The notes under the pieces were generated by a model, which was given only the letters and a program-made list of their open reading frames with translations, made no database searches and was not told the DNA's origin. Positions 1 to 54,299 of a stretch of DNA of 64,000 nucleotides are shown piece after piece (positions within the stretch are counted from its first letter, which is position 1; every line of letters starts with the position of its first letter). A program made the translations under genes and the position numbers. The stretch is from the IMG/VR virus record IMGVR_UViG_3300021255_004486, one strand, 5' to 3'. Source of the DNA: an uncultured virus (IMG/VR IMGVR_UViG_3300021255_004486). Its lineage: Duplodnaviria; Heunggongvirae; Uroviricota; Caudoviricetes.

Positions 1-82
1 AACATAGCTTATTTGCGAGGTATCTATGTGATTTGATAATGCACCACCGGGCAGATTATAACTGCTTACTACATAATAGAAA
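1..82 (-). other. Cassette 0 (truncated by window edge): FYYVVSSYNLPGGALSNHIDTSQISYV...
   Basis: Variant site TTTCTATTATGT on minus at 71-82; frame open to position 1. Confidence 0.7.
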
Positions 83-186
83 CTATTTTTATAGCTGAAC
101 GTGACTTTTACCGCCGTTTTTTAATGCGAAAAAAGTATAGATGTGTCGCAAAAGCATACATTTTGTTACTTTTTCTATTTAATATC

Positions 187-399
187 TTTTATTATGTACT
201 TAACGAGAATAAAGCTCTTTCTCGTGGCCTCTCAGGGGGTTACTATGATGCTTTTACAATTCGCGCACAGTATACTAATCCATCCATTTCCTACGATCCA
301 TTCACGGGGAGATTGGAGATTACGGGAGCTCAATTCTTCTTACATGAAGGAGTAAATCAAGACGTATATATCGAGACCGACATATTCTTACTTAAGTAA
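187..399 (+). other. Silent cassette 1: FYYVLNENKALS...ETDIFLLK*
   Basis: CTTTTATTATGT at 186-197; open frame to TAA. Confidence 0.85.
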
Positions 400-618
400 G
401 TACAATGACGTCTCAAAATCGTATGTACTTAATGTATAATTAGTCTGACTTGTACTGTTATACCCAAATATCTGAACACTTGCCGGACTGATGGTCAGTC
501 GTCCCGTGGCGGGCTCATAATCTATTTGAGGCTCGTAAAATATTAGAGAAAGATAGTTGGGTGCTTGATTTCCGTATTTATTACCTGTGGAATAGTTATT
601 TGTCACGACATAATAAAA
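388..618 (-). other. Silent cassette 2: FYYVVTNNYSTG...TSLYLLK*
   Basis: Site on minus at 608-619; open frame. Confidence 0.85.
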
Positions 619-652
619 GGACTGTATGAGTTTTCGCTTTTACAGTCCTTTC

Positions 653-850
653 TTTTATTATGTTTTGGAAGCCGATGGGAGCGGCTATACAGGCTATACG
701 GGTTACTTTTCAGCCGTGCGTCCATCACTCTCATATAACGGCCCTACGGGCATTCTATCGGTGTTTCCTGCTTATACGTCGTCGTCATCCACAAATGGCA
801 ATGATAGCGGTACTCAGATGGTTCAGACATCCGTATATCTACTTAAGTAA
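653..850 (+). other. Silent cassette 3: FYYVLEADGSGY...TSVYLLK*
   Basis: Site at 652-663; open frame. Confidence 0.85.
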
Positions 851-1069
851 ATAGACTGAGCATGTTATTACGTCTGATGTTGACCAGTTGTATCCGCTAT
901 AGGAAGGGCACGAGCTTGATAAATATAGCGTTCCAGGCGATACAGTTAAAATTCCTGTTTCCGTATTAAAAGATAAAGAAGCGGGACTATAACTCGAAGA
1001 AATTCCGTATGTACCGGCATTATAATATGCTGATTTATTTGTATTTCTTCCCGATTCCACATAATAAAA
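839..1069 (-). other. Silent cassette 4: FYYVESGRNTNK...CSVYLLK*
   Basis: Site on minus at 1059-1070; open frame. Confidence 0.85.
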
Positions 1070-1093
1070 GGACTTTCTTCGAGGAAGAAGTCC

Positions 1094-1306
1094 TTTTATT
1101 ATGTAGTTCCGTCCTATAATGGCTCGTCCACAGTTGTAGACAATGGCGCGAGTTTCTGCGCAAGGGGGAAGTTCACAACCGCAACAATAACCTTTGATTC
1201 AGAGGCAGGAACGCTAAAAGTGACACCCGCAAACCTATTTATAAATCCTGGTGGAGGAGTAACGCTTAACCAAAACATATCTACTACTGTTTATTTGATT
1301 AAATAG
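1094..1306 (+). other. Silent cassette 5: FYYVVPSYNGSS...TTVYLIK* (absent from ORF track)
   Basis: Manual translation, 71 codons, site at 1093-1104. Confidence 0.85.
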
Positions 1307-1527
1307 ATCATTGTGTCAAGTACCTTTGAAGAAGGGACGCTCAAACCTGCACATGAACCCGAGGCAGTAAGCTTTGCCGCTGTTATAGAGAGTTGCCCCG
1401 TGGATGATGTATAGGAAATACTTGGTGTCGTAAATGTGCCTGTTCCAGAGATCGAATGAGCGTATCCTGTATCTTTCGAATATGTATTTGAAGCGGAACA
1501 CGATCCATTCACAAGTTCATAATAAAA
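1291..1527 (-). other. Silent cassette 6: FYYELVNGSCSA...TMIYLIK*
   Basis: Site on minus at 1518-1528; open frame. Confidence 0.85.
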
Positions 1528-1539
1528 GGACAAAGTGAC

Positions 1540-1758
1540 TTTTATTATGCCTATCAGAGTAGTGCAACAGGCATAAAAACCGGTGGAGCAAGCGCATATC
1601 AAATATGGGTTTCTCCTGCAAGTCCTTCATATAATTCAAGTAACGGCACCCTAACAGTCAACCTGCCATATTATAAAATCCACTACTACTTAGGATCGGA
1701 CGGAACCGATAGAGAGTACACATATCAAATCCCCGTTGCCGTTTATTTGATTAAATAG
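1540..1758 (+). other. Silent cassette 7: FYYAYQSSATGI...VAVYLIK* (absent from ORF track)
   Basis: Manual translation, 73 codons. Confidence 0.85.
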
Positions 1759-1979
1759 ACTGCGGTAGGCATACTTTTTGATCCGCTTGAAGCATAATTA
1801 TTAAATCCACCTGACGCAGAGATGCTCGCCGGAGTTACAGTTAAATTACCTGTTGATGTATTAAAATCAATCCCTGGAACGTAAAAATATGCGTACCCGA
1901 ATGCTGTCCCGGAGTACGGCTGAGCTACAGTCGTAGTAACTCCTTTAGTGAAACTATCGTTGGACAATACATAATAAAA
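1743..1979 (-). other. Silent cassette 8: FYYVLSNDSFTK...TAVYLIK*
   Basis: Site on minus at 1969-1980; open frame. Confidence 0.85.
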
Positions 1980-2012
1980 GGACTACGTGAAATTAAATCG
2001 TGTAGTCCTTTC

Positions 2013-2222
2013 TTTTATTATGTATTAAGCTCGAATAGTGGTACAAGTAGCAACTCCTCACAAGGGACAGGGACAGTTACCGCAAGCTTTACTCCGCCCT
2101 CATTATCATACAACCAGACAACAGGCATCTTGAACGTCTCTCCCGGTTATGTTTACGCCTATTTGGGGAGCAAAGCAAACGTCTATGTGTATCCGCCTCT
2201 AAGCGTATATCTACTTAAGTAG
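2013..2222 (+). other. Silent cassette 9: FYYVLSSNSGTS...LSVYLLK* (absent from ORF track)
   Basis: Manual translation, 70 codons. Confidence 0.85.
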
Positions 2223-2435
2223 GTATATATCACAACGCACATTGCTTTTTGAGGTGTTAGGATCATAACCCTGTCTTGTAGTTGATGAATACATATAACC
2301 AGGAACAATTGTTAGTTCGCCAGACGTATTATCAAAGGAGATCGAAGGCCGATAGGCAGTTACGGAGACGGACACCGTACCTCCGGCAGCATAAGAACTA
2401 CCGCCTCCACTCCCCGTAGATTCCACATAATAAAA
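2211..2435 (-). other. Silent cassette 10: FYYVESTGSGGG...CDIYLLK*
   Basis: Site on minus at 2425-2436; open frame. Confidence 0.85.
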
Positions 2436-2447
2436 GGACAAAGTGAC

Positions 2448-2729
2448 TTTTATTATACAGTTTTACCTAATACAGTAGGTGGAACAGCCCTTGTAACACC
2501 AGTTGCAAGTGGTTCTGGCCCCTTTAATATAGAGTACGGATACTATGACGAAAGGATTTCTTATACCCCTGCCTCAATTTCTTACAATAATAACAATGGT
2601 GAATTAAGTGTTACCCTGCCTATTATAGGAGCCGTGGTTGCATGGAGTGATGTAGGAGGTGCTGCAAAAGGATATATGGGGCCGGAAAAGTATCAATCTT
2701 TCCCTATACATTTGTATTTACTTAAGTAA
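2448..2729 (+). other. Silent cassette 11: FYYTVLPNTVGG...IHLYLLK* (absent from ORF track)
   Basis: Manual translation, 94 codons. Confidence 0.85.
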
Positions 2730-2939
2730 ATAGACGACTGTGCTGATCCCGGATGTGGTTGGATAATGCGCGGAACCGGATGTGATCCCTCCATAGATTG
2801 TAGCGGGGGATACAGTTAAAGTTCCTGCTGTGTTATCAAAGGATAGTGTTGGCGCAGAGTATCGAGCCTCCCCCGCAGTCCAATTATCACATCCAGCCGC
2901 ACGAAAAGTAATTGATTGGGATGATACGACATAATAAAA
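2718..2939 (-). other. Silent cassette 12: FYYVVSSQSITF...TVVYLLK* (absent from ORF track)
   Basis: Manual translation, 74 codons. Confidence 0.85.
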
Positions 2940-2973
2940 GGACTACAAAGCCATAGAGTAATGTAGTCCTTTC

Positions 2974-3165
2974 TTTTATTATGTCCCTACTTGGCAAATT
3001 GTTGATGTTTCAAACCCTTTGAGCGGGTTTAAGGCACCCATAATAACCTACGATTCAACTACGGGAGATTTGACCGCATGCTCTTTTTACCACTACAGAA
3101 GAACTGACTCAACCGGACAGCCTCAAGAGAATTGGTGGCCAATAAAGGTTTACTTGATCAAATAA
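2974..3165 (+). other. Silent cassette 13: FYYVPTWQIVDV...IKVYLIK* (absent from ORF track)
   Basis: Manual translation, 64 codons. Confidence 0.85.
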
Positions 3166-3497
3166 ACATTTATAGGAGATATGTAATCACGATGTTCCCC
3201 TGTAAGTGCTTGTCCATTTGAAACCCATGCTGATACATAAGCAGGGGCGACTGATAAATAGCCGTTTGCGGGATTGTAACTATAACCACCTTTGTTGAAA
3301 CTCACATGTGCTATTATTCCGCCCCCATACGACTGCCCCACGTCTGATACAACATAATAAAAGTTATCGTTGGTCAGATTTTTGTATCCAGGTAGGTAAG
3401 AAAGGCTTATTGTCGTGCTTGACGAGAATGTTCCTACATACGCTTTTCCGTGGAAATTATTCCAATCTGATATATCTCCTATGCTCTGACCACTCAT
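3150..3497 (-). CDS. Putative expressed shufflon protein: 45-aa constant N-terminus fused at FYYV to cassette 14 (3150-3362); probable small adhesin or receptor-binding domain
   Basis: Cassette with a coding-like in-frame N-terminal extension (MSGQ...GYKNLTNDN|FYYV); function inferred from S/T/G/Y-rich beta-like composition. Confidence 0.7.
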   Translation of the reverse strand: MSGQSIGDISDWNNFHGKAYVGTFSSSTTISLSYLPGYKNLTNDNFYYVVSDVGQSYGGGIIAHVSFNKGGYSYNPANGYLSVAPAYVSAWVSNGQALTGEHRDYISPINVYLIK

Positions 3498-3621
3498 GTC
3501 GGGATTGGCGTTTGCTTTGCCTTCTTCATAATAGTGATTTTGAATATATTCTGATTTTCCATAAATGCCGAAAAATCATATTATTATACAGATATTTTCA
3601 TGACAAAAAGGAGGAAGAACT

Positions 3622-4476
3622 ATGAAGATGAGAAACAGTTTTAGAGAGTTTAAGGTGGAAGATTACGACAAGGAGATTGCCTGGTTCAGAAAGCGGATAC
3701 AACTCGATGGTTTGTCTGACTGTACGCTTGAATCATACTGTTGGACGCTCGGAAGTTTACTCAGAACCTATAACGGCGTACTAAACCCCGACAATATCCT
3801 CGATTACAAAGTAAAGCTGATTGACTCTGTCGCCCCGGCCACTGTTAACGCCCGTATTCATGGAGTAAACAAGTATATGTGGGAGAAAGGTCTTAATTTC
3901 CACTTAAAGACTGTAAAGGTAGAACCGAGACAATATTTAGAGAATGTCATCTCAAAGACTGATTATAAGCACTTAAAACGTATGCTTAAGCGTGATCATA
4001 GGATGTATTACTATCTTGTGACCGGGATAGCAACGACAGGTGCGAGGATCAGCGAGATACTTACGCTCCGTGTAGAACACGTCTACGAGGGTATGTTTTC
4101 GGTGTATGGCAAGGGAGCGAAGCACAGGACGCTCTTTATAACCAATGTATTCCAAAAGGAATGTATGTCGTGGTTATCTCAGACAGGGCAAAAGGAAGGA
4201 TACATATATTCCCTTGACGGAGGCATAACTCCACTTAAGCCGTCACAAGTAAGAGATGCATTCCAGAGATTTGCTAAATGGTATCACATAGACACAGCGG
4301 TGATGCATCCGCACGGATTTAGGCATTTCTTTGGGAAGATGTATATGCAAAACGGTGGAGACATAGTTACACTTGCATCTATTATGGGGCATTCAAGCAT
4401 TGAGACCACCAAGAGATACTTACTCGTCAGCCTTGAAGAAGCAAAGGCACAGTATAATAGGATAGTGACGTGGTGA
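3622..4476 (+). CDS. Tyrosine recombinase (XerC/D-like), likely shufflon invertase
   Basis: TGARISE, GKGAK, HGFRH, MGHSSIETTKRY catalytic motifs; AGGAGG RBS; adjacent to array. Confidence 0.93.
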   Translation: MKMRNSFREFKVEDYDKEIAWFRKRIQLDGLSDCTLESYCWTLGSLLRTYNGVLNPDNILDYKVKLIDSVAPATVNARIHGVNKYMWEKGLNFHLKTVKVEPRQYLENVISKTDYKHLKRMLKRDHRMYYYLVTGIATTGARISEILTLRVEHVYEGMFSVYGKGAKHRTLFITNVFQKECMSWLSQTGQKEGYIYSLDGGITPLKPSQVRDAFQRFAKWYHIDTAVMHPHGFRHFFGKMYMQNGGDIVTLASIMGHSSIETTKRYLLVSLEEAKAQYNRIVTW

Positions 4477-4611
4477 TTTCTGTACAGCCATTTATCTTTC
4501 AGTTCATCTTTCATTCTTAATTTAACTGTTAATTAAGTAAAGGTGAATGATAGATGTTTTCACCTTTACGATTATCGGAATACTTATTGTTCCGGGAAAG
4601 AAAGGTGAATT

Positions 4612-5043
4612 ATGACAACATTCGAAAAAGAACTCAAGGCTGCAACAACCATAATCGACGTACAGGCAATGAGAGACTTCCTCTATCAGTATGCAAATGA
4701 GGAGATCGGGGTAGATAGAAGCGGCAACGCAACTACCCTCCGCGTAGAGGTTGCAAAGGTTATTGAACTGGTGACTCGTGCATGCGTAGACGATGGTAGC
4801 ATCAATTACTACCGTTCGTACCAGGCTCGTAACACCGTCGAGATGACCGAAGAGGAAAGAAAAGCCCGTGCAGATAGGAATTACATCATCGCTTGCAGAA
4901 AGCTGATGTGGTTAAACCTTATGGGTAACAAGTACACAGGTCGTTACTTCGTATTGCAGGGGATCAACCGTGAATCTGTTACAGATGCAAGAATGGTCTG
5001 TGACGCGTTCGAGTTCATCGTAAGAAATTACAATAACATCTAA
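4612..5043 (+). CDS. Hypothetical protein
   Basis: 143-aa ORF with AAGGTG RBS. Confidence 0.7.
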   Translation: MTTFEKELKAATTIIDVQAMRDFLYQYANEEIGVDRSGNATTLRVEVAKVIELVTRACVDDGSINYYRSYQARNTVEMTEEERKARADRNYIIACRKLMWLNLMGNKYTGRYFVLQGINRESVTDARMVCDAFEFIVRNYNNI

Positions 5044-5122
5044 AAGAATTAGTGCTCCGTTAATCCGGGGCACTTTTCTATGGTATAATAGATCCATCTC
5101 ACGATTCTATATTTCACAAAAA

Positions 5123-5170
5123 TTCGTGTACAGAAAATGCACGAAGAGTTCCAATCTTCCATACTTATAT
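5123..5170 (+). promoter_or_regulatory. Element-specific bipartite promoter motif TTCGTGTACAGAAAA-N22-CATACTTA (representative copy)
   Basis: Upstream box recurs about 17 times in intergenic regions, usually with fixed spacing to CATAC. Confidence 0.75.
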
Positions 5171-5212
5171 TAGAAAACAAAACATTCGCTTTACCAGAAG
5201 GAGGTAACAACC

Positions 5213-5356
5213 ATGAGTGACATTTGCAACAACATCAACTTTGACAGCGTCGCAGCAATGCTTTGCGGAGAAGAGCTCACCGATGAGCAGAAGAAGGATG
5301 TGGAGCAGTTCAACCAGGCATACGACGAGCATATCGCCAAGTCTGAGGAAGAATAA
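5213..5356 (+). CDS. Small acidic hypothetical protein (47 aa, MSDICNNINFDS...)
   Basis: GGAGGT RBS, manual translation. Confidence 0.6.
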   Translation: MSDICNNINFDSVAAMLCGEELTDEQKKDVEQFNQAYDEHIAKSEEE

Positions 5357-5363
5357 TCCCATA

Positions 5364-5618
5364 ATGACAAAAAGATTCAGAGTATATGACAAAATAGATA
5401 TAGATTTGCCGGCAAACGTGGTAAATGAGTACAACATGTATTGTGGTACTTTAAGCGATAAGCTTGTCCAAGGATACGCAACCGCCTCAGATTGCACTCA
5501 CAACTTTTCCAAGAAAGAAATAGAAGAAAGAGTAACGGAGGCGTTATTGGGGGAAATCGACATCTATAAACATCCGAAACATCTCTTGGAAGACATGCTT
5601 AGTGAGGGAATACTGTGA
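5364..5618 (+). CDS. Hypothetical protein, paralog of 55685-55939
   Basis: Shared P-N-VNEYN--CGTL-DK-V-GYA pattern; start reassigned to ATG 5364. Confidence 0.7.
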   Translation: MTKRFRVYDKIDIDLPANVVNEYNMYCGTLSDKLVQGYATASDCTHNFSKKEIEERVTEALLGEIDIYKHPKHLLEDMLSEGIL

Positions 5619-5710
5619 CATTCCTCTATCACAAACCAATCGGTATTTAAGGTAACCCCTTAAAATATAAAACGAACAAAAGCGAATAGAATCGAACAAA
5701 GGAGAAAAGT

Positions 5711-6613
5711 ATGGAAGAAAAGAAGACTACCTACAGAGAAGTTTCTTACGTTGAAGAGGCCATGAGAGATAATTCTCTCTTTTCGGCGCACACCGGCAAA
5801 TGGAATCTGTTTGTCCGCCCCTGGTACAACATGGATAAGTTAAGATTCTGCTTTGTCGAGAAGGGTAAGGCAGGTAAGGGTAACTCCTTCACTGTATGCG
5901 TAGATGTTACCAAGCACGGCGCTCCCTGCTTTGAGAAGTGGGCCAACGACATCTTAAGTCCCATCGGGCGCTTTGAGAAGATGATGGCGCTTGAGAAAGA
6001 TAAGGAAGAGCCTGTGACTTATAAGTTCACTACCGGCGTAACCGGTGAGAAGACTGTCGGAATACAGAACTCAAGCAAAGGACATGGATTCTACTGTATA
6101 AAGGGTTCTTCATTTGTGAATGACAAGCCTGTCACAGCAATGATTCCGGTTGACTTTGGGGATCTATATATCCTCGCCGAGGCATTCAAGTTCTCATACG
6201 AGAACAGAAGACGCGCACTTGAAGATATAAGAGTCAACGCAGAGAATGTGAACAGCTCCTATTATAAGAAGGAATCCAAAGAGGATATGGCAGAGGAAGC
6301 AGCAACTTCCGAACCGACACAGGAGCAGGACACAGAACTGCCCGATATATGCCCCAACCCTATCGATAAGATGGTTCCGACATCGATCAGAGTAAGCATC
6401 GGAAGCCCGGTTAAGGGAGAAGGCGGATTCATCTTCGAAGGAACCGAGGTAAACTCCAATGAGCCGGTCAATCTGTTCGTGTCAAACGAAACCCTTAAGG
6501 GTGAGCAGGCAGAGACCTGGAAAAAGCTCTCTGATGCACTTAAGGAGACCAAGAGAACCGTCACATTCATTATTGAGGACGGCGAGCAGAAAGTGATCAA
6601 AGCAATCGCATAA
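5711..6613 (+). CDS. Hypothetical protein
   Basis: 300-aa ORF, AAGGAG RBS. Confidence 0.75.
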   Translation: MEEKKTTYREVSYVEEAMRDNSLFSAHTGKWNLFVRPWYNMDKLRFCFVEKGKAGKGNSFTVCVDVTKHGAPCFEKWANDILSPIGRFEKMMALEKDKEEPVTYKFTTGVTGEKTVGIQNSSKGHGFYCIKGSSFVNDKPVTAMIPVDFGDLYILAEAFKFSYENRRRALEDIRVNAENVNSSYYKKESKEDMAEEAATSEPTQEQDTELPDICPNPIDKMVPTSIRVSIGSPVKGEGGFIFEGTEVNSNEPVNLFVSNETLKGEQAETWKKLSDALKETKRTVTFIIEDGEQKVIKAIA

Positions 6614-21864: not shown

Positions 21865-21936
21865 TCCCCCATAGTGTAGAGGTAACACGACTGACTGTTA
21901 ATCAGTTATCCCATGGTTCGAGCCCAGGTGGGGGAG
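21865..21936 (+). tRNA. tRNA-Asn(GTT)
   Basis: Cloverleaf, CTGTTAA loop. Confidence 0.9.
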
Positions 21937-22064
21937 CTCATAGAGATAGACGGAACAGGCACCCGGAAGTCTCACAATTAACCAAAAGTAAACAATCAAC
22001 AAGGTGAGTTAATCATCAAAAGAAAGGAAATAAAATGAAAGTTCGATTTAGAACCGTCTGACAT

Positions 22065-22137
22065 GGACGGTTAGCTTAAAAGGTGAGAGCGCCGGGTTGA
22101 AGCCCCGGAGAGACAGGTTCGATACCTGTACCGCCCA
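22065..22137 (+). tRNA. tRNA-Phe(GAA)
   Basis: CCGGG-TTGAAGC-CCCGG arm. Confidence 0.85.
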
Positions 22138-22219
22138 CTGAAAAATTCGTGTACAGAAAACGGATGCAATACAGTTTTCTTCCATACTTAATATAAACCT
22201 TGAAAATTAAATCATTATC

Positions 22220-22293
22220 GGCTCTGTAGTGGAGATGGCCAACACGCCTGCCTGTCACGCAGGAGATCGCGGGTTCGAGCCCCGTCAGAGTCG
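22220..22293 (+). tRNA. tRNA-Asp(GTC)
   Basis: Cloverleaf, CTGTCAC loop. Confidence 0.9.
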
Positions 22294-22298
22294 CTTAA

Positions 22299-22406
22299 GC
22301 ATACGGTGGTGGAATAGGTAAACACATTGATAGTAGCAAGACCGAATGGAAGTCAAACACAGAGGTCATGTAAGGTGACAGAAATTCAAATCCTTACCCG
22401 TATGCG
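22299..22406 (+). ncRNA. Atypical tRNA-like element
   Basis: GCATACGG/CCGTATGC acceptor, Leu-like D arm, T arm with 9-nt insertion, no canonical anticodon arm. Confidence 0.5.
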
Positions 22407-22675
22407 AAAATTTGGGGATAACAAAAGGCAGCATATTTCTCTCCCACGAAAGCAGGAATTTGCCTTTTGCCCCGTGTATGTGTAAAACCGGATAGGGAAT
22501 TCGTGGCCCCCTGGTACACCATACACAAATTGGGTAAGCAAATTAAGATGGGATGCGAGTGGTTTCCTGCGGTGCCCTCTTACCAAAACGGCGAGGAGAT
22601 GGTTGGGTTTCCTGTACCTAATAACTTAGCGGTATTGTCGCGGCAGGCCACTCCGGCAATATGAAACAGGAACAT

Positions 22676-22748
22676 GGGTCAGAGGTCGCAATGGGGTGAC
22701 GCGAGTTTTGCAAACTTGAGATGGCGGGTTCGATTCCCGTGTGATCCA
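22676..22748 (+). tRNA. tRNA-Ala(TGC)
   Basis: CGAGT-TTTGCAA-ACTTG arm; G3:U70 pair. Confidence 0.75.
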
Positions 22749-22749
22749 C

Positions 22750-22820
22750 TCGGGATTAGTTTAATAGGAGAACGGCTGTCTTACAAACAGCAGGCGGTGG
22801 AGCGTAACCATCATTCCGAA
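22750..22820 (+). tRNA. tRNA-Val(TAC), atypical T loop
   Basis: GCTGT-CTTACAA-ACAGC arm. Confidence 0.75.
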
Positions 22821-22824
22821 CTAT

Positions 22825-22895
22825 CGAGTATGTGGTGTAATGGGAGCACGCGCGCATAGGGAGCACGAGGCGACGTTCGAATCGTACATATTCGA
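22825..22895 (+). tRNA. tRNA-Pro(AGG)
   Basis: CGCGC-ATAGGGA-GCACG arm; C1-G72, A73; imperfect stems. Confidence 0.65.
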
Positions 22896-22898
22896 TTT

Positions 22899-22970
22899 CG
22901 AGAACGAAGTGTAAAGGTTTGCACACTGACTTCGGGAGTCAGTAGAGTGGTTCGAGTCCAACGTTTTCGA
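22899..22970 (+). tRNA. tRNA-Pro(CGG)
   Basis: CTGAC-TTCGGGA-GTCAG arm. Confidence 0.8.
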
Positions 22971-23106
22971 CTTGTAGCAGAAGCCACCGCTATGTCACCT
23001 TGCTACGGCTTGGAAGTGTTGCAGCACAGTGGATTTGGATGCAATTTGCCTTGGATGCATCAGAAGTATAAATGAGTAGCGCTGTTAGTTTATGCTTTGG
23101 CAATAC

Positions 23107-23179
23107 TGCGGATTAGAGGAGATGGCAGCCTTGCAAGGTTCATACCCTTGAGACACCGGTTCGAGTCCGGTATCCGCGA
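23107..23179 (+). tRNA. tRNA-Met(CAT), initiator-like
   Basis: CAAGG-TTCATAC-CCTTG arm; non-Watson-Crick 1:72. Confidence 0.8.
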
Positions 23180-23210
23180 TTTGACTCCTCAAATTTGAGG
23201 AGTCGGACAA

Positions 23211-23283
23211 GCCCGATTCGTCTATCGGCGAGGATACGTGGTTCTCAGCCACGAGAGGTTGGGTTCAACTCCCACATCGGGTA
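23211..23283 (+). tRNA. tRNA-Glu(CTC)
   Basis: CGTGG-TTCTCAG-CCACG arm. Confidence 0.85.
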
Positions 23284-23289
23284 CTATAT

Positions 23290-23363
23290 GGCTCCATCGT
23301 CTAACCGGAATAGGACGTTGCCCTTTCAAGGCAGAAACGGGAGTTCGAGCCTCCTTGGAGCTA
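23290..23363 (+). tRNA. tRNA-Glu(TTC)
   Basis: CTTTCAA loop. Confidence 0.9.
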
Positions 23364-23365
23364 CT

Positions 23366-23437
23366 GTGACTATGGTATAACGGCTATTACATCGGGTTGT
23401 GATCCCGAGGATTCGAGTTCGATTCTCGATAGTCACC
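23366..23437 (+). tRNA. tRNA-His(GTG)
   Basis: TCGGG-TTGTGAT-CCCGA arm. Confidence 0.9.
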
Positions 23438-23510
23438 GCAGGAGAAATCCTTGCAGTACCTTAATAACAATATAGGGATGTCGGAAACAGGCACTTTCGA
23501 TGTCCCACAT

Positions 23511-23581
23511 GTGGGTGTGGTGTAATGGTAGCACACAACCTTGCCAAGGTTGCGGTACGGGTTCAAATCCCGTTATTCACT
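23511..23581 (+). tRNA. tRNA-Gly(GCC)
   Basis: TTGCCAA loop. Confidence 0.9.
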
Positions 23582-23646
23582 CTTGGTGAATCTTCGCAGA
23601 AGCGATACTAACACCGATTTGTGTGGGTGAAGTCACCCACCAATTC

Positions 23647-23719
23647 GTCCGTGTGGTGTAATGGATTAGCACGACTGCCTTCCAAGCAGTAAATCTCGGT
23701 TCGATTCCGAGTACGGGCT
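23647..23719 (+). tRNA. tRNA-Gly(TCC)
   Basis: CTTCCAA loop. Confidence 0.9.
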
Positions 23720-23720
23720 C

Positions 23721-23792
23721 TGGGCGTTCGTACAATGGTTAGTGCCTTCGTCTTATACGCGAATGATAACAGTTCGATTCTGTTACGCCCTA
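23721..23792 (+). tRNA. tRNA-Ile(TAT)
   Basis: TTCGT-CTTATAC-GCGAA arm. Confidence 0.8.
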
Positions 23793-23877
23793 CTCGGCTG
23801 TAAGTAAAGAAAACGGCCAAAAATTTTAATAAGAACTTGGAATGGGATTCTTATTAAAGCAGATTTATATTAAAAAT

Positions 23878-23949
23878 GCCGTCATGGCGCAATGGTAGCG
23901 CAAGTGCCTTGTAAGCACTGGGTTGTGGGTTCAAGTCCTACTGGCGGCC
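23878..23949 (+). tRNA. tRNA-Thr(TGT)
   Basis: AGTGC-CTTGTAA-GCACT arm. Confidence 0.9.
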
Positions 23950-24025
23950 CTTTAAGGAGAAAATAAAGATGTTGCGATTACGATTGCTCCGACTGTGGAG
24001 TCTACAAATGAATAGTTCTTAATAC

Positions 24026-24102
24026 GTGCACGTAGCCCAATTCGGCAGGAGGCAGGGGATTTAAGCTCCTCACAGTGATCGGTTCGAGTCCGTCCGTGCA
24101 CA
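24026..24102 (+). tRNA. tRNA-Leu(TAA), short variable region
   Basis: TTTAAGC loop. Confidence 0.8.
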
Positions 24103-24106
24103 TTGA

Positions 24107-24180
24107 GTGCCCGTGACGGAATTGGAATACGTACTGGAATAAGAATCCAGGTTTTGAGAGTTCAAATCTCTCCGGGCATA
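24107..24180 (+). tRNA. tRNA-Leu(AAG), short variable region
   Basis: CTGGA-ATAAGAA-TCCAG arm. Confidence 0.8.
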
Positions 24181-24185
24181 CTTAA

Positions 24186-24259
24186 GGCCGACTACCCCAA
24201 CCGGAAGAGGGAATACGTTCAGAGCGTATCAAGTCTCGGTTCAAATCCGAGGTCGGCTA
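24186..24259 (+). tRNA. tRNA-Leu(CAG), short variable region
   Basis: ATACG-TTCAGAG-CGTAT arm. Confidence 0.8.
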
Positions 24260-24260
24260 C

Positions 24261-24336
24261 GCAGGCGTATCCCAACTGGCAGAGGAGGCAAGCTCAAACC
24301 TTGTTAATCGTGTGAGTTCAAATCTCACCGCCTGTA
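24261..24336 (+). tRNA. tRNA-Leu(CAA), short variable region
   Basis: GCAAG-CTCAAAC-CTTGT arm. Confidence 0.8.
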
Positions 24337-24357
24337 CTTAATAACAAAGGAGTAGAT

Positions 24358-24582
24358 ATGTCAGAAGAAGCTCTCGAATGGGGAATACACATCCTTGTTC
24401 CACAAATAGCGGGTGACGAATGTAAGCACTACTTTACGTGTCCCGTATGCGGATTCCATTATACGGATTATATCGGGAGTCCTGCAAAGGAAAGCTGCCC
24501 AAAGTGCAACACGGTGCTCGTAATCGGAAAGTTCTATACGGGCTCAAGAAATAAGATTTTGAAGGGAAGTGGTTCATTATGA
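24358..24582 (+). CDS. Small zinc-ribbon protein inside tRNA array
   Basis: CPVCG...CPKCN; AAGGAG RBS. Confidence 0.65.
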   Translation: MSEEALEWGIHILVPQIAGDECKHYFTCPVCGFHYTDYIGSPAKESCPKCNTVLVIGKFYTGSRNKILKGSGSL

Positions 24583-24610
24583 TTGATTATTATTATAAGG
24601 ACAACATTAA

Positions 24611-24694
24611 GGGCAAGTAAGCATAGCGGCGATTGCGGCGGACTGTAAATCCGTTACACCAGAAACACCGTAGGTTCGAGTCCTACCTTGCCCA
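24611..24694 (+). tRNA. tRNA-Tyr(GTA)
   Basis: CTGTAAA loop, long variable region. Confidence 0.9.
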
Positions 24695-24765
24695 CTCAAA
24701 ATAATACAAAGGAGAAGATTTATGAAACGAAAACAGAAACAAAAGCACAAAATTCATAAAGACAT

Positions 24766-24837
24766 GCGTCTGTAGCCAAGTGGTATGGCAGCCGGCTTTT
24801 AACCGGCATATCGGGAGTTCGAGCCTCTCCAGGCGCA
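24766..24837 (+). tRNA. tRNA-Lys(TTT)
   Basis: GCCGG-CTTTTAA-CCGGC arm. Confidence 0.9.
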
Positions 24838-24880
24838 TTAGGGATAGAAATATCCGCTATGGCAAGATTCGCCGTAGTGC

Positions 24881-24953
24881 GCCTGTGTAACTTAACTGGC
24901 AGAGTAGCGGTCTCTTAAACCGAAGGTTGCAGGTTCGATTCCTGTCACAGGCA
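24881..24953 (+). tRNA. tRNA-Lys(CTT)
   Basis: CTCTTAA loop. Confidence 0.85.
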
Positions 24954-25177
24954 TTAAGGCATTGACTTAAACAGTCGATATATAAACTATAGGAGATATT
25001 TACAATGAATACAATGGTAGTAATGATTCAAATTTCATCAAGACGCTCACAGTCCAGGATTCAAAACTGGATTAGTTGTCGTGGAAAGGATGTATATGGA
25101 TAATACGCGAATCTTACTCAATATCCGATAAAGTGGGGATCATTGCAAGGATTTGCGGTGGTCTCCATTTTTTATAT

Positions 25178-25261
25178 GCCGTAGTCGCTCAGTTGGTGGA
25201 GCCCCTGTCTTGAAAACAGGTAGCCCGAAAGGGTATGTAGGTTCAAATCCTATCTACGGCG
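25178..25261 (+). tRNA. tRNA-Ser(TGA)
   Basis: CTTGAAA loop, long variable arm. Confidence 0.9.
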
Positions 25262-25266
25262 CTCAT

Positions 25267-25353
25267 GGCGGTGTACTCTAACTGGAAAGAGACTTGTCCC
25301 GAAAACAAGCGTAGCGAGAAATCGCGATGAGGGTTCGACTCCCTCCGCCGTCG
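25267..25353 (+). tRNA. tRNA-Ser(CGA)
   Basis: CTTGT-CCCGAAA-ACAAG arm. Confidence 0.85.
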
Positions 25354-25356
25354 TAT

Positions 25357-25453
25357 GGTCACGTAACCCTAACTGGTAAGGGACATGTTTGCTAAACATG
25401 CAGTAATCGGGCAACCGGTGTCCGGTGTCGGAGTTCAAATCTCCGCGTGACCG
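25357..25453 (+). tRNA. tRNA-Ser(GCT)
   Basis: TTGCTAA loop, long variable arm. Confidence 0.85.
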
Positions 25454-25457
25454 CTAA

Positions 25458-25528
25458 ATATCCTTGGTGTAATGGTAGCACGGCGAGCTCCAACCTCGCA
25501 GACGTGGGTTCGATTCCTACAGGATGTG
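25458..25528 (+). tRNA. tRNA-Trp(CCA)
   Basis: GCGAG-CTCCAAC-CTCGC arm. Confidence 0.85.
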
Positions 25529-25531
25529 TAC

Positions 25532-25603
25532 ATCCCCGTAGTCTAACAGATAGAATACTTGGCTACGAACCAGGTGATGAGGGTGCGACTCCTTCCGGGG
25601 ATG
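25532..25603 (+). tRNA. tRNA-Arg(ACG)
   Basis: CTACGAA loop. Confidence 0.85.
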
Positions 25604-25607
25604 CTGA

Positions 25608-25680
25608 TGCCGCATAGTTCAGATGGTAGAACGCTTGATTCTGACTCAAGAGGTCGCAGGTTCGATCCCTGCTGCGGTAG
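25608..25680 (+). tRNA. tRNA-Gln(CTG)
   Basis: CTTGA-TTCTGAC-TCAAG arm. Confidence 0.85.
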
Positions 25681-25684
25681 CTAT

Positions 25685-25758
25685 GGCAACGTACTCAAGA
25701 GGCTTAAGAGGCAAGTCTGCAAAACTTGTATTTGGGGGTTCGAATCCCTCCGTTGTCT
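25685..25758 (+). tRNA. tRNA-Cys(GCA)
   Basis: CAAGT-CTGCAAA-ACTTG arm. Confidence 0.9.
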
Positions 25759-25762
25759 TTGA

Positions 25763-25833
25763 AGGGGATTAGCCTAACGGTAGGGCATCGGATTTTGGTT
25801 CCGAGTGTGAGAGTTCGATTCTCTCATCCCTTG
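25763..25833 (+). tRNA. tRNA-Gln(TTG)
   Basis: TCGGA-TTTTGGT-TCCGA arm. Confidence 0.9.
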
Positions 25834-25837
25834 CTTT

Positions 25838-25910
25838 GCGGGCGTAGCTCAGTTGGTAGAGCACTCGTCTGATACGCGAGAAGTCGCAAGTCCGATTCTT
25901 GCCGTCCGCA
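25838..25910 (+). tRNA. tRNA-Ile(GAT)
   Basis: CTCGT-CTGATAC-GCGAG arm. Confidence 0.85.
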
Positions 25911-25914
25911 TTTG

Positions 25915-25986
25915 GTCTCGTTAGTTTAATGGATAGAACAGGGGACTTCTAATCCTCCGATGCGGGTTCAACTCCTGCACGAGACA
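25915..25986 (+). tRNA. tRNA-Arg(TCT)
   Basis: CTTCTAA loop. Confidence 0.9.
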
Positions 25987-37089: not shown

Positions 37090-38226
37090 ATGCGAAAATT
37101 CAAAGCAATAGCCAAGATACTCATATTTCTGGCTATCATTTGGGTTCTGTGTGTAAAAGGCATCAACGGAGTTACGTTGGGAAGTCTTATCTCAAAGCCT
37201 ATAAGCGGGGTTATCAATAATGTCGCAGATACAGGCGAGGAGTTTTTGTCAGAGCATACGGATGAATACGGAGAGTTCGTATTCCCCGAGGATACGCCCT
37301 CAATAGAGGATGCAGAGATAAAGACTGAAGAGAAGACTGAAGACGTAATTACTGATGCGCAGCAGTTCCTTAATGATGCAAGAGAAGCTCTTGGAACGGA
37401 TGTCACCACGTCTGATTCTAATCTGGCCAATGTCTATGTCGAATTTATCGATGTAGGGCAGGGCGATTCCACACTTATCGTGGATAATGGTCAGGCAATG
37501 CTGATCGATACAGGATTGTATGAGGCGTATGACAATGTCAAAGACGCACTCCGCGAATACGGAGTAAGCACCATCGACACACTCATACTCACACACCCCG
37601 ACGCAGATCATATCCAGGCAGCACCGGCAATCATAGAAGACTATGATGTAAAAACGTGCTATATGCCAGTTGTCACAAATGATACGGCGGCCTACGAGCG
37701 TGCGATAAACTCTCTGTACACGAACAATGTAGAGGTTATCAATCCCACAGCGGGCGATCTTATCGATTTTGGTACAGCAAGGTACGAAGTGCTTGGCCCT
37801 GTATATGATGTTGAAGGCGCGTATGATGATACAAATTCATACTCGATCATCGTAAAGATGACAAACGGTGCAGATTCATTCTTATTTACAGGAGATGCGA
37901 CCGGAGACGAGACAGAAGATGTGTTATCGGCAGGGATGGATGTATCGGCAGATGTGTACAAGGCTGCCCATCATGGCTCAGCGAACGACGGATGCAACAG
38001 TGAAGCATTTATCCGGGCAGTGTCACCCGAGACAATGGTAGTTTCCTGCGGTTATCACAATGATCACGGACATCCGCACAGAGAGACCATGAGCCTCGCA
38101 ACAGAGTATGGACTCACACTTTACCGTACAGACTTGCAGGGTTCAGTCGGAGCATTAAGCACCGGCAATGGAATCAAGTGGGGCGTAGAGCCCACGACCG
38201 TTTACACAAACGGCAATAATCTTTGA
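37090..38226 (+). CDS. ComEC/Rec2-type metallo-beta-lactamase-fold hydrolase (membrane-anchored)
   Basis: DVGQGDS, LIDTG, THPDADH, FTGD, HHGS, GHPH. Confidence 0.88.
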   Translation: MRKFKAIAKILIFLAIIWVLCVKGINGVTLGSLISKPISGVINNVADTGEEFLSEHTDEYGEFVFPEDTPSIEDAEIKTEEKTEDVITDAQQFLNDAREALGTDVTTSDSNLANVYVEFIDVGQGDSTLIVDNGQAMLIDTGLYEAYDNVKDALREYGVSTIDTLILTHPDADHIQAAPAIIEDYDVKTCYMPVVTNDTAAYERAINSLYTNNVEVINPTAGDLIDFGTARYEVLGPVYDVEGAYDDTNSYSIIVKMTNGADSFLFTGDATGDETEDVLSAGMDVSADVYKAAHHGSANDGCNSEAFIRAVSPETMVVSCGYHNDHGHPHRETMSLATEYGLTLYRTDLQGSVGALSTGNGIKWGVEPTTVYTNGNNL

Positions 38227-38927: not shown

Positions 38928-39308
38928 GTGTTTATGATAAACAATCAATTATTAACTCTTACCCCAATGGAGCTGCTTGATTATTTCACGAAGAACTTCA
39001 CGGACGAACTCCCCAGTGAGGTCAAATCTGTAGAGGATATGAATCACGCAGCAGAGTTGTTGCTTAAACTCACCGAAGAGTATTCCTATATATGCTCACT
39101 TCTTTCTCTGGCAAAGATAATGACTCGCGATGCGAAAAGACATCTTTCAAAGGAAGAATATGAGGATATGGTGGACAGGAAAGAGATCATTCAGAATATG
39201 GCGGATGTCATAAAGCAAAAATATGCCGCCATAAGCAGGGCAGTCACGATAAAGCTTGAGAACAATGCTGAACTGCGAATGACCGGTAATGGGTATATCA
39301 ACAGGTAA
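38928..39308 (+). CDS. Hypothetical helical protein
   Basis: AAGGAG RBS. Confidence 0.65.
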   Translation: MFMINNQLLTLTPMELLDYFTKNFTDELPSEVKSVEDMNHAAELLLKLTEEYSYICSLLSLAKIMTRDAKRHLSKEEYEDMVDRKEIIQNMADVIKQKYAAISRAVTIKLENNAELRMTGNGYINR

Positions 39309-39904
39309 TGTATATCGATATTGCTGTATTCTGTTCTGACAGCGCAAAGCGATACCACAAATGGCCCTTACGAAGATTAGGGCTTGTAAGCAATGAAAAC
39401 GGATTCTTGGGGCGGGTTTCGCAATCAAAATATGAGAGGATCCGGCAATACTGTGAAGCTCACCACTTAAAATACCGGATCAACAATCCGAAGTGGGAGA
39501 GAAGCACAGATTATAGACACACATTCTTTTCCAATAATAAGCCGTATATCAAAGATTTATATTTCTGCGCATACTGCGGAAGACTCAGATCCCGGAGATA
39601 CATCACGGTAGACCATATATACCCGATAAGCGTTGCCCAAAAGAGCATCAGTCTTCAACAAAAGCTAAAACGCCAGGGCATAAAGAGCATCAATGATAAG
39701 AACAACCTTGTAGCAGCATGCAGGAGATGTAATTCCCGCAAAAGCGCAAAGATGGGACTATGGATCATCAGAGGCAAAATCGGGAAACATGCATGGATAT
39801 GGGAGCTTAAACATGCATTCCGTATCAGCCTTTTGATAAGCATTATCTGGCAACTGACGCAAGATGGATACACACAGCAATTCCTAAAGGCATTTACAGG
39901 ATGA
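39308..39904 (+). CDS. HNH endonuclease
   Basis: CAYCG...TVDHIYP...NLVAACRRCNSRK. Confidence 0.85.
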   Translation: MYIDIAVFCSDSAKRYHKWPLRRLGLVSNENGFLGRVSQSKYERIRQYCEAHHLKYRINNPKWERSTDYRHTFFSNNKPYIKDLYFCAYCGRLRSRRYITVDHIYPISVAQKSISLQQKLKRQGIKSINDKNNLVAACRRCNSRKSAKMGLWIIRGKIGKHAWIWELKHAFRISLLISIIWQLTQDGYTQQFLKAFTG

Positions 39905-53060: not shown

Positions 53061-54299
53061 GTGGTATATGTGTTAAATAAAACCGGACATTCGCTTATGC
53101 CTACTGAAAGGCACGGTAAAGTCAGACGGATGTTAAAGTCCGGCGAAGCAATAGTTGTAAAGAAATGTCCGTTTACGATACAGCTCACATATCACACTAC
53201 AGGAAGAGTACAACCTATATCTTTGGGTATAGATGCAGGAAGCAAGACTATCGGAGTGTCCGCCACCATAGAAAGTAAGGTGCTTTACGAAGCGGAAGTT
53301 ACTTTAAGAAACGACATCGTGGATTTACTTTCAACCCGTAGAGAATGTCGCAAGACAAGACGAAACTGTAAAACACGCTACCGCAAGCCAAGATTCGATA
53401 ATCGTACCCGTAAAAATGGTTGGCTTACCCCAAGTATACAAAACAAGGTAGATACACACCTTAAAGTGGTTGAAAACGTATGCAGAATACTTCCTGTAAG
53501 CAAGATAGTAGTTGAGGTTGCCGCATTTGATATACAAAAGATAAAGAATCCCGGTATAGAGGGCGAACAATACCAACAGGGCGACCAACTCGGCTTTTGG
53601 AATGTCCGTGAGTATGTACTTTTCAGAGACGGGCATACATGCCAATGCTGTAAGGGTAAGTCAAAGGACAAAATCCTTAACGTCCACCACATAGAGAGTC
53701 GTAAAACAGGTGGAGACGCACCAAATAATTTGATCACTTTATGTGAAACCTGTCATAAAGGTTATCATGCCGGTACGGTCAAACTGCCAAAGATCATTAA
53801 ACGAGGCATGACATTTAAGGATGCAACTTTTATGGGGATCATGCGGTGGGCTTTCTATAACAGACTAAAGGAAATGTATCCAAATGTAAGCTTCACCTAC
53901 GGATATATAACAAAGAACACGCGCATACAGAACGACTTACCAAAAGAACACCATATCGACGCAAGGTGTATATCCGGCAATTCAACAGCAAAAACCGCAG
54001 GAGAAGTTTTCTATCAAAAGAAAATAAGATGCCACAACAGACAACTGTACAAGAGTACCATTCTAAGAGGCGGACGCAGGAAGCTTAACCAGGCAGGTAA
54101 ATATGTAAAGGGATACAAGCTGTTCGATGTTGTTAAATTTAACAATAATACATATACAATCTTCGGAAGAAGAGATAGCGGCTTCTTTGACATAAGAACA
54201 CTATCTGGAGAGAAGATCAACAACGGTAGTATTAGTTGCAAAAAACTTAAGTTTATATCACACCAACAAAGTTTTATAACAGAAAGGAGGACTGCCTAA
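53061..54299 (+). CDS. iscB: RNA-guided endonuclease IscB
   Basis: SLMP (PLMP-like), LGIDAG RuvC-I, Arg-rich helix, CQCC..HH..NLITLCETCH HNH, HHIDA RuvC-III. Confidence 0.93.
   Translation: MVYVLNKTGHSLMPTERHGKVRRMLKSGEAIVVKKCPFTIQLTYHTTGRVQPISLGIDAGSKTIGVSATIESKVLYEAEVTLRNDIVDLLSTRRECRKTRRNCKTRYRKPRFDNRTRKNGWLTPSIQNKVDTHLKVVENVCRILPVSKIVVEVAAFDIQKIKNPGIEGEQYQQGDQLGFWNVREYVLFRDGHTCQCCKGKSKDKILNVHHIESRKTGGDAPNNLITLCETCHKGYHAGTVKLPKIIKRGMTFKDATFMGIMRWAFYNRLKEMYPNVSFTYGYITKNTRIQNDLPKEHHIDARCISGNSTAKTAGEVFYQKKIRCHNRQLYKSTILRGGRRKLNQAGKYVKGYKLFDVVKFNNNTYTIFGRRDSGFFDIRTLSGEKINNGSISCKKLKFISHQQSFITERRTA

Follow-up and report, generated by a model that had tools for sequence, protein, structure and literature searches.

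A putative shufflon with at least 15 alternative C-termini beside a tyrosine recombinase in a large, tRNA-rich uncultured phage

Introduction

How many versions of one protein end can a phage keep in store, and what would it use them for? The question is raised by the left end of a 64,000-nucleotide (nt) stretch of DNA (hereafter the window) from an uncultured Caudoviricetes virus, IMG/VR record IMGVR_UViG_3300021255_004486, where short stop-free cassettes alternate between the strands next to a gene for a tyrosine recombinase. An earlier reading made from the letters of this DNA (the sequence-only reading) compared the arrangement with the R64 shufflon and proposed that inversion swaps the binding tip of one protein.

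The analyses reported here support the interpretation of the array as a shufflon that has many sites, a tyrosine recombinase and no fewer than 15 alternative C-termini. With reasonable confidence, we propose that this phage-encoded shufflon re-targets a small receptor-binding tip among at least 15 receptors by way of the neighbouring recombinase. The shufflon mechanism is very likely, and receptor-tip switching is probably its function.

Results

Core sites and segments

The 10-mer core CTTTTATTAT occurs in 14 exact copies in the window, all within 186-3363 and in strict strand alternation beginning with plus (186, 610, 652, 1061, 1093, 1519, 1539, 1971, 2012, 2427, 2447, 2931, 2973 and 3354); the remaining 60.6 kb hold no exact copy. 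If one mismatch is tolerated the count rises to 27, where 9.45 +/- 3.02 would be expected, and none of 100 shuffles reaches 27. A shufflon is expected to have at least three short conserved sites, in both orientations, clustered at one locus; here there are 14. The cores delimit seven segments of 391-494 base pairs (bp), each with two convergent stop-free cassettes. This matches the R64-like geometry of two-ended segments between inverted sites that had been proposed from the sequence.

The unique left flank of the shufflon lies at 85-185, as placed by sequence and cassette mapping, with no strand assigned. Segment 1 (186-619) runs from a plus core at 186 through cassettes 187-399 (plus) and 388-618 (minus), whose ends overlap by 12 nt, to a minus core at 610. 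It is followed by segment 2 (652-1070; cassettes 653-850 plus and 839-1069 minus), segment 3 (1093-1528; 1094-1306 plus and 1291-1527 minus), segment 4 (1539-1980; 1540-1758 plus and 1743-1979 minus), segment 5 (2012-2436; 2013-2222 plus and 2211-2435 minus) and segment 6 (2447-2940; 2448-2729 plus, with 93 residues, and 2718-2939 minus). Segment 7 (2973-3363) combines a silent cassette at 2974-3165 (plus) with the cassette that is now at the expression site, 3150-3362 (minus). Within each segment the two cassettes overlap by 12-16 nt (388-399, 839-850, 1291-1306, 1743-1758, 2211-2222, 2718-2729 and 3150-3165), and the shared stretch is a palindrome or near-palindrome such as TTACTTAAGTAA, which encodes the common C-terminal L-[LI]-K-stop on both strands.

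Between the segments, back-to-back cores are separated by six spacers (620-651, 1071-1092, 1529-1538, 1981-2011, 2437-2446 and 2941-2972) of 32, 22, 10, 31, 10 and 32 bp. The four long spacers contain a GGAC...GTCC palindrome, and their junctions are strong palindromes with predicted folding energies of -20.6 to -28.5 kcal/mol (z -5.5 to -7.9). One of them was flagged as terminator-like, and the long junctions could perhaps act as bidirectional terminators; a scan of 1-5000 against Rfam found no family. An exact direct repeat of 31 nt, composed of two cores and a 10-nt spacer, occupies 1518-1548 and 2426-2456, which suggests the recent copying or exchange of a junction module.

Coding status of the cassettes

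When the core is read as C-TTT-TAT-TAT, all 14 cassettes are stop-free, open with F-Y-Y and end in [YF]L[LI]K followed by a stop codon. The strand-alternating cassettes that open at a common core in one frame, as described before, are therefore backed by 14 of 14 exact cores in the array. The sites thus stand in one frame, such that alternative 3' cassettes fit one constant 5' part. Cassette lengths are 70, 76, 65, 76, 70, 78, 72, 78, 69, 74, 93, 73, 63 and 70 residues in array order; the range of 64-94 codons given earlier refers to the same cassettes with the stop codon included. The proteins are only 24-37% identical to the first cassette, with F1, Y2, Y3, one G, two L and the final K invariant in a conserved frame of the form FYYV...PSISYNxxTGxLTVxP...VYL[LI]K (consensus core PSISYNxxTGxLTVxP), and yet the core DNA is identical in all 14.

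A 15th cassette is read on the minus strand from 81 to 1. It has 27 codons (FYYVVSSYNLPGG...), is cut by the window start and opens at a core with two mismatches (73-82). It had been noticed before as a truncated cassette and is real, in that its full-length version is found in the database proteins P0099 and P0193.

Many of these cassettes would escape ordinary gene calling. Five (1094, 1540, 2013, 2448 and 2718) have no open reading frame (ORF) of at least 40 residues from ATG, GTG or TTG, and cassette 2974 is listed as an ORF only from an internal TTG, so the earlier count of six cassettes missing from the ORF track was essentially right. Between the upstream stop codon and F-Y-Y, an in-frame start is absent in nine of the 13 silent cassettes, and one silent cassette has no start codon whatsoever. 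Because of this lack of upstream starts, and because the core DNA is invariant despite divergent proteins, the cassettes do not appear to be stand-alone genes; independent translation, named beforehand as the finding that would speak against a shufflon, is not favoured. They nevertheless seem to be kept as coding sequence. Relatives of the window were assembled from runs of two other studies (X2 and X4, one of them from bovine gut) and are 88-99% alike over the compared pieces. Among the differences listed between these relatives and cassettes 1094-1306 and 1291-1527, 24 of 29 fall at third codon positions (binomial p 6e-8), a pattern that points to purifying selection on silent cassettes.

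Expression site and varied gene

The cassette at 3150-3362 (minus) extends upstream as an ORF at 3150-3497 that encodes 115 residues. The coding-like N-terminus reported for it earlier is confirmed by 45 constant residues, counted from the ATG at 3497. The constant 5' part of the varied gene spans 3364-3562 on the minus strand. Upstream of this ATG no stop interrupts the frame for another 26 codons, of which about 15 align with P0102, a database protein of 144 residues that starts with MENQNIFK. The varied protein is thus small, with 115 residues as called and about 141 if the upstream frame is read. A start of the relative's type, MENQNIFK, is present at 3562-3539 (minus) in a frame different from that of the rest of the constant gene, hence a one-base frame break near 3538-3541 relative to P0102. 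Given that the X2 relative has no indel at this site, an assembly error need not be the cause, and the break may be real. Programmed frameshifting was considered, and no classical slippery heptamer was seen by eye. The divergent intergenic region (3563-3621) contains the recombinase's ribosome-binding site, together with promoter-like hexamers for the minus-strand gene, which are consensus matches only.

The left flank, where ORF 124-399 begins with a hydrophobic leader (MRKKYRC...), was also considered as a second expression site. This is unlikely, since the three constant strands of the structural model described below are missing from a cassette on its own.

The recombinase and its family

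The dedicated recombinase that a shufflon calls for adjoins the array. It is an Xer-like tyrosine recombinase of 284 residues at 3622-4476 (plus; PF00589 at 2.7e-20), presumed to be an invertase, and its gene is divergent from the expression site at 3150-3497. R142, K167, H231, R234, H257 and Y266 are invariant in an alignment of 26 sequences; these we take to be the catalytic set R, K, HxxR, H and Y of the enzyme. The gene had been described as intact and divergently placed, and both points hold. Xer-type NCBIfam models also match it, all below their cut-offs.

Relatives at 28-42% identity were found in 84 proteins, on 244 viral contigs, on at least 563 metagenome contigs and on 112 genome contigs, the last mostly from Lachnospiraceae and other Clostridia. 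From their gene neighbourhoods, these relatives appear to run inversion systems. Of 238 fetched loci of the family, none of them more than 42% identical, 91 have HsdS-like genes, and in locus L001 and in Ruminococcus albus pRUMAL02 hsdS genes lie on both sides of the recombinase; the cassette domain of the window occurs in none of the 238. Blastn of 1-6000 against GenBank phages gave no match, and nothing was found in viral contigs with the recombinase alone or with P0102. No match of the plasmid search is annotated as Rci, and a low-identity enterobacterial plasmid match (H20) was set aside as the recombinase of an IncC plasmid, not an IncI1 shufflon locus or Rci.

Two features of these loci deserve mention in their own right. 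One IMG/VR contig (L026, 8323-9933) carries a three-segment tail-fibre shufflon with six alternating ATAATTATGA-type cores, which overlap pairwise into palindromes just upstream of a recombinase 35% identical to that of the window; baseplate J and Mu gp48-like genes are followed there by a 470-residue ORF that runs into the six cores. The 10-mer CTTCTCATAA/TTATGAGAAG flanks the recombinase on both sides in L001, L095, L115, L123, L140, L143, L148, L149 and L153, and is found as the reverse complement or with an offset of one base in L094, L128, L137 and L145. In the hsdS loci with this 10-mer on both sides, the recombinase gene itself lies between inverted sites.

Alternative junctions at the core

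Evidence for junctions comes from assembled contigs, where run X1 is the probable source of the window and so not independent of it, and from database proteins. Contigs of X1 break at the cores, and also at 70-82, by the degenerate core of the 15th cassette. Two of the breaks are explained by the exact 31-nt repeat, and the remaining ones lie at overlaps of 12-14 nt; the contigs were presumably built from 31-letter words, which are longer than these overlaps. One X1 contig follows the left flank through 197 and then continues with 17 letters identical to 664-680 of the window, within a cassette of segment 2.

The relatives show other arrangements of the same material, which answers the earlier call for a comparison of cassette order among related assemblies: both neighbours and expressed cassettes differ. 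In X2 and X4, cassettes 1094-1306, 1291-1527 and 1743-1979 stand beside novel partner cassettes and 10-nt spacers. Switches at the core are seen as joints from 663 to 1742 and from 1299 to 608, with loose ends at 1528, 1980 and 661, and in X2 cassette 1743-1979 has a different partner and spacer than in the window. The letters past the expression-site core, read by hand, encode FYYDMCAAT in X2, FYYVENAHY in X4 and FYYVVSDVG in the window.

Two sets of database proteins are chimeras of constant part and cassette that switch exactly at the core. P0133, the sole protein with the window's constant region among 5.8 billion clusters, agrees with the window protein in 48 of 48 residues as far as F-Y-Y, after which it continues into a DMCAAT cassette that is absent from the window; it is encoded on a contig of 1904 nt, and a 99% identical recombinase is encoded on a contig of the same length, 1904 nt. 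P0102/P0193, the expressed gene of a relative, joins that relative's constant part to the 15th cassette of the window. Recombination at the core is therefore supported by alternative junctions and by P0133. We infer that the junctions arise by inversion and that the neighbouring recombinase makes them.

To the left, an X1 contig of 1353 nt extends 1271 nt past the window start. Past 70-86, an X1 contig goes on for 13 letters that resemble, without being identical to, those with which the constant part starts at 3368-3380 (by eye, 11 of 13 agree). The resemblance hints that another constant region, now decayed, or another locus lies to the left of the window. A search of viral and metagenome contigs with an exact 40-mer taken from the start of the window gave no match.

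A probable tip domain

When 1.84 billion representatives were searched with a profile built from the 14 cassettes, 108 proteins were retrieved. The giant repeat proteins among them match only the central TGxLTV-type motif. The small and mid-sized ones carry the whole cassette at their C-terminus, and the constant part is conserved in them too (...LGT.G.SF.I....Y..LT.DNF...), which places the crossover inside one domain of about 100 residues. This whole domain forms the end of P0174, P0141 and P0101. P0141 matches a tail-fibre PHROG at 3.6e-14, and P0174 matches 'head protein' or virion structural PHROGs (1.3e-69) as well as a baseplate PHROG (2.2e-5).

The structure prediction for a fusion of constant part and cassette that had been suggested earlier gave a confident all-beta model with strands from both parts. 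AlphaFold2, with an alignment of 20 rows, placed three strands in the constant part and six in the cassette, at a mean predicted local distance difference test (pLDDT) score of 88.3 and a predicted template modelling (pTM) score of 0.78. Judging from this model, constant part and cassette together form one beta-sandwich domain. The VIA search gave Z scores of about 4 to the C-terminus of the LKA1 tailspike and to H-type lectins (3.9-4.1 for structures 2ccv, 3wmp and 2w94, below the level that the tool calls reliable), and of 3.8 to the R2 pyocin fibre tip. Two matches at E <= 1e-3 were found in BFVD, both uncharacterised phage proteins. Atlas feature neighbours are mostly viral, at scores of 0.85-0.88, which the tool counts as no more than a lead, and in some of the neighbour clusters H_lectin (PF09458) or gp53-like_C (PF21882) is found in 10-26% of members. 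A homotrimer prediction for the 115-residue protein scored 0.01 against a mark of 0.42 and is no evidence either way. Tblastn of this protein against phages gave no match. The cassettes varied too much for their alignment to serve as the seed of a locus search, and the fetched loci of the recombinase family held no second copy of the system.

Since virion and tail-fibre-like proteins of other phages end in this same domain, the best reading is that the product is most likely a stand-alone receptor-binding tip, possibly one that binds carbohydrate.

Phage context and host

The window carries 29 tRNA genes at 21865-25986 (plus), which cover most amino acids and include two tRNA-Leu(taa) and one tRNA-Ile(tat). 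It also has genes for thymidylate synthase, PhoH, a RuvC-like resolvase, SbcC, primase and DNA polymerase, and a contig of 162,233 nt is recorded that carries a recombinase identical to that of the window. The element is a large phage of at least 64 kb and probably about 162 kb. Its host may plausibly belong to the Firmicutes: the nearest counterparts of the PhoH-like protein, at 36% identity, are in the Bacillus jumbo phages PBS1 and AR9, and one window protein matches a 'sporulation protein' PHROG. The earlier description as a giant element of Firmicutes stands insofar as the element is large; with 29 tRNAs and phage replication genes it is a phage rather than a generic giant element, and the Firmicutes part is at present a plausible assignment.

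Elsewhere in the window, two exonuclease V/Dda-like helicase genes stand in tandem at 48210-50309 and 50386-52746, and the DNA polymerase is split over the ORFs 61940-63238 and 63254-64000, which correspond to positions 46-330 and 335-498 of PHROG 405. HNH endonuclease genes are found at 39308-39904 and 53061-54299.

Discussion

How the array may work

We suspect that one small gene, read leftwards from about 3562 or from 3497, is the target of the system, and that its constant 5' part holds the 12-base core CTTTTATTATG(T) in the frame that reads F-Y-Y. The neighbouring tyrosine recombinase would recombine this expression-site core with the 13 other cores in 186-2982. Since the expression-site core (3354, minus) faces seven plus cores, one inversion would install any of the seven cassettes that open at cores of opposite orientation, in frame. 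The other six would need two inversions, the flip of their own segment coming first. Every event would swap the C-terminal 63-93 residues. In the resulting protein, the conserved strands FYYV, SYNxxTGxLTV and VYL[LI]K would serve as the frame and the variable stretches as loops, and the tip, which may be lectin-like, would sit on the virion and bind a host receptor.

Several observations weigh against this proposal. The 115-residue protein has no Pfam (E <= 0.01), PHROG or NCBIfam family; Foldseek found nothing at E <= 1e-3 in the PDB, with top rows (SecB and others) at template modelling (TM) scores below 0.4; and the best row of the wide VIA search, the receptor-binding domain of a cyanophage tailspike, is a weak match at Z 4.7, with no row at Z >= 5. 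Apart from 37090-38226, which has a tail-PHROG match, no structural genes are recognisable in the window, which consists of replication and tRNA modules, and a link of the varied gene to a tail operon is therefore not seen. The frame break after MENQNIFK relative to P0102 and the lack of a Shine-Dalgarno-like motif before the ATG at 3497 make expression of the varied gene uncertain. The X1 junction between the left flank and cassette 653 corresponds to one deletion between the direct cores 186 and 652, or else to two inversions, and there is no unambiguous inverted junction in the assembled contigs, among the pieces listed. Furthermore, X2, X4 and P0133 belong to relatives or other samples, and their differences from the window could be fixed repertoires instead of ongoing switching.

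The first of these points are those that would be expected if the shufflon were real and its product were not a virion tip, but rather a small secreted or surface lectin-like protein that is produced in the course of infection or lysogeny, for instance for decoration, exclusion or adhesion to a target that is not the host receptor. The small gene stands alone beside regulators and replication genes, outside a recognisable tail operon, it matches no annotated family, and four database proteins (P0142, P0171, P0178 and P0189) begin with a hydrophobic N-terminus like a membrane anchor. We consider this unlikely, though it is the most serious competitor, given that proteins with tail-fibre and virion-structural PHROG matches end in this domain and that the closest Atlas and BFVD neighbours are viral. 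The tail module could also lie left of the window, and published phage shufflons all act on a tail or receptor-binding protein gene (PMC6109161, PMC13596623). It would be more improbable still that the array is a frozen or decaying relic, with no more switching, or no product, in the phage of the window. The frame break, which is shared with X2, the degenerate core of the 15th cassette and the want of a directly seen inverted junction would all suit a relic. They are set against cores and cassettes that are intact in 14 of 14 cases each, the third-position bias in the differences of silent cassettes, an alternative junction inside the probable source run, intact catalytic residues in the recombinase, and a product from ATG 3497 that still folds confidently in the model.

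Least credible of all, to the point where we give it hardly any weight, is an array without recombination, made up of paralogous small genes that lie head-to-head and tail-to-tail and are each translated separately. Four silent cassettes do have an in-frame ATG or TTG upstream, and such ORFs have been called in public data (for example P0089, P0099 and P0108). However, the other nine have no upstream start, a lone cassette would lack the three N-terminal strands of the model, the DNA core is invariant in cassettes with 24-37% protein identity, and the P0133 and P0102 chimeras break exactly at the core. Tip switching by a shufflon therefore remains the reading that we prefer.

One extension of it is more speculative, and we regard it as doubtful, if somewhat less so than a product that is not part of the virion. 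The gp38 protein of T2-type phages is a free-standing adhesin that docks non-covalently. The tip of the window could likewise be a free-standing docked adhesin, instead of forming the end of a fibre polypeptide, with two-tip modules that are traded among related phages, a pan-repertoire of more than 15 tips, and the largest phage receptor-switching repertoire known. If the modules are exchangeable units, the lineage would draw on a pan-repertoire well beyond 15 tips. Other data sets show at least three further tips at these sites or close to them (one in P0133/X2 and two in X4), and the protein library holds eight more FYY-opening cassettes with spacer-like flanks.

Comparison with known inversion systems

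The R64 (IncI1) shufflon, in which Rci acts on pilV, has four segments, seven sfx sites and seven C-termini. It shares with the system proposed for the window multiple inversion by a tyrosine recombinase, segments with two convergent 3' ends, a single expression site located at the end, and crossover in a short conserved site inside the coding frame. The window has seven segments, 14 sites and at least 15 C-termini, so the earlier estimate of at least twice the R64 repertoire holds. R64 varies the adhesin of a plasmid conjugative pilus, whereas the window varies a phage protein, and R64 has single sites between segments where the window has back-to-back core pairs with spacers of 10-32 bp. The phase-variable hsdS inversion loci of type I restriction-modification systems in Clostridia (for example L001 and R. 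albus pRUMAL02) contain the nearest recombinase relatives that we found, at 37-40% identity. They too have a dedicated inverting tyrosine recombinase that acts on short inverted repeats within coding sequence, but their target is the HsdS specificity subunit and the recombinase lies between the hsdS copies.

Closer in kind are the phage systems. In prophages of Bifidobacterium breve and B. longum, the Rin shufflon comprises five Rv alleles and a rix site of 11 bp (Mavrich et al. 2018, PMC6109161), and Rin was termed the first phage-encoded tyrosine invertase (PMC6109161); it also occurs in Eggerthella lenta prophages (PMC8778435, 2022). Rin and the window have in common a phage-encoded enzyme of the tyrosine family (in the window a presumed invertase), one constant 5' part (of a receptor-binding protein in Rin, of a probable one in the window) that is joined to several divergent C-terminal cassettes, a short asymmetric repeat ahead of every cassette (the 11-bp rix versus a core of 10-12 bp), and assemblies that differ through rearrangement at the sites (PMC6109161). 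The differences are in the number of cassettes (five Rv alleles against 14 complete cassettes and at least one more), in gene order (Rc, Rv array and rin, against array, constant part and divergent recombinase), in the target (a receptor-binding protein related to that of lactococcal phage 1358, against a protein of 115-141 residues from an unnamed domain family) and in the setting, with Actinobacteria as hosts of Rin and a large phage rich in tRNA genes (29) here (PMC6109161).

BV01-like phages of Phocaeicola vulgatus have a tail-fibre shufflon with three cassettes and six isoforms, all configurations of which were seen in read data (PMC13596623, 2026 preprint). There, as in the window, a 10-bp directional motif separates the cassettes and the recombinase flanks the array, which overlaps the tail-fibre gene at its distal end; unlike the window, the system has three cassettes, a Bacteroidota host and a carbohydrate-binding tail fibre of normal size (PMC13596623). 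Min (p15B), Cin (P1) and Gin (Mu) also switch tail-fibre C-termini by site-specific inversion, Min with several segments, but they are serine invertases, of another enzyme family and mechanism (PMC6109161). The listings returned by full-text literature searches showed no shufflon linked to a jumbo or mega phage and none with so many cassettes.

Tyrosine-recombinase shufflons that act on phage receptor-binding proteins have thus already been published, and the system of the window is a very large further case, with no new mechanism. What distinguishes it is the number of cassettes, the small stand-alone target, the palindromic two-tip modules with their own core pair, and the tRNA-rich phage that carries it.

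Implications

Arrays of this kind break assemblies, and gene callers miss or mis-start most of their cassettes. The earlier warning that standard annotation would overlook the system was well founded, many cassettes being missed by ordinary ORF calling. The array also defines an unannotated family of tip domains for which there is a confident model and, in its loop variants on a single scaffold, a natural library, which may be useful for studies of receptor recognition in uncultured phages of the Clostridia type.

From the perspective of phage biology, what a phage can infect is limited above all by its host range. One large gut phage with a stock of at least 15 ready-made, selectable tips, three times the five alleles of Rin and twice the repertoire of R64, would show how far site-specific recombination can extend that range without mutagenesis.

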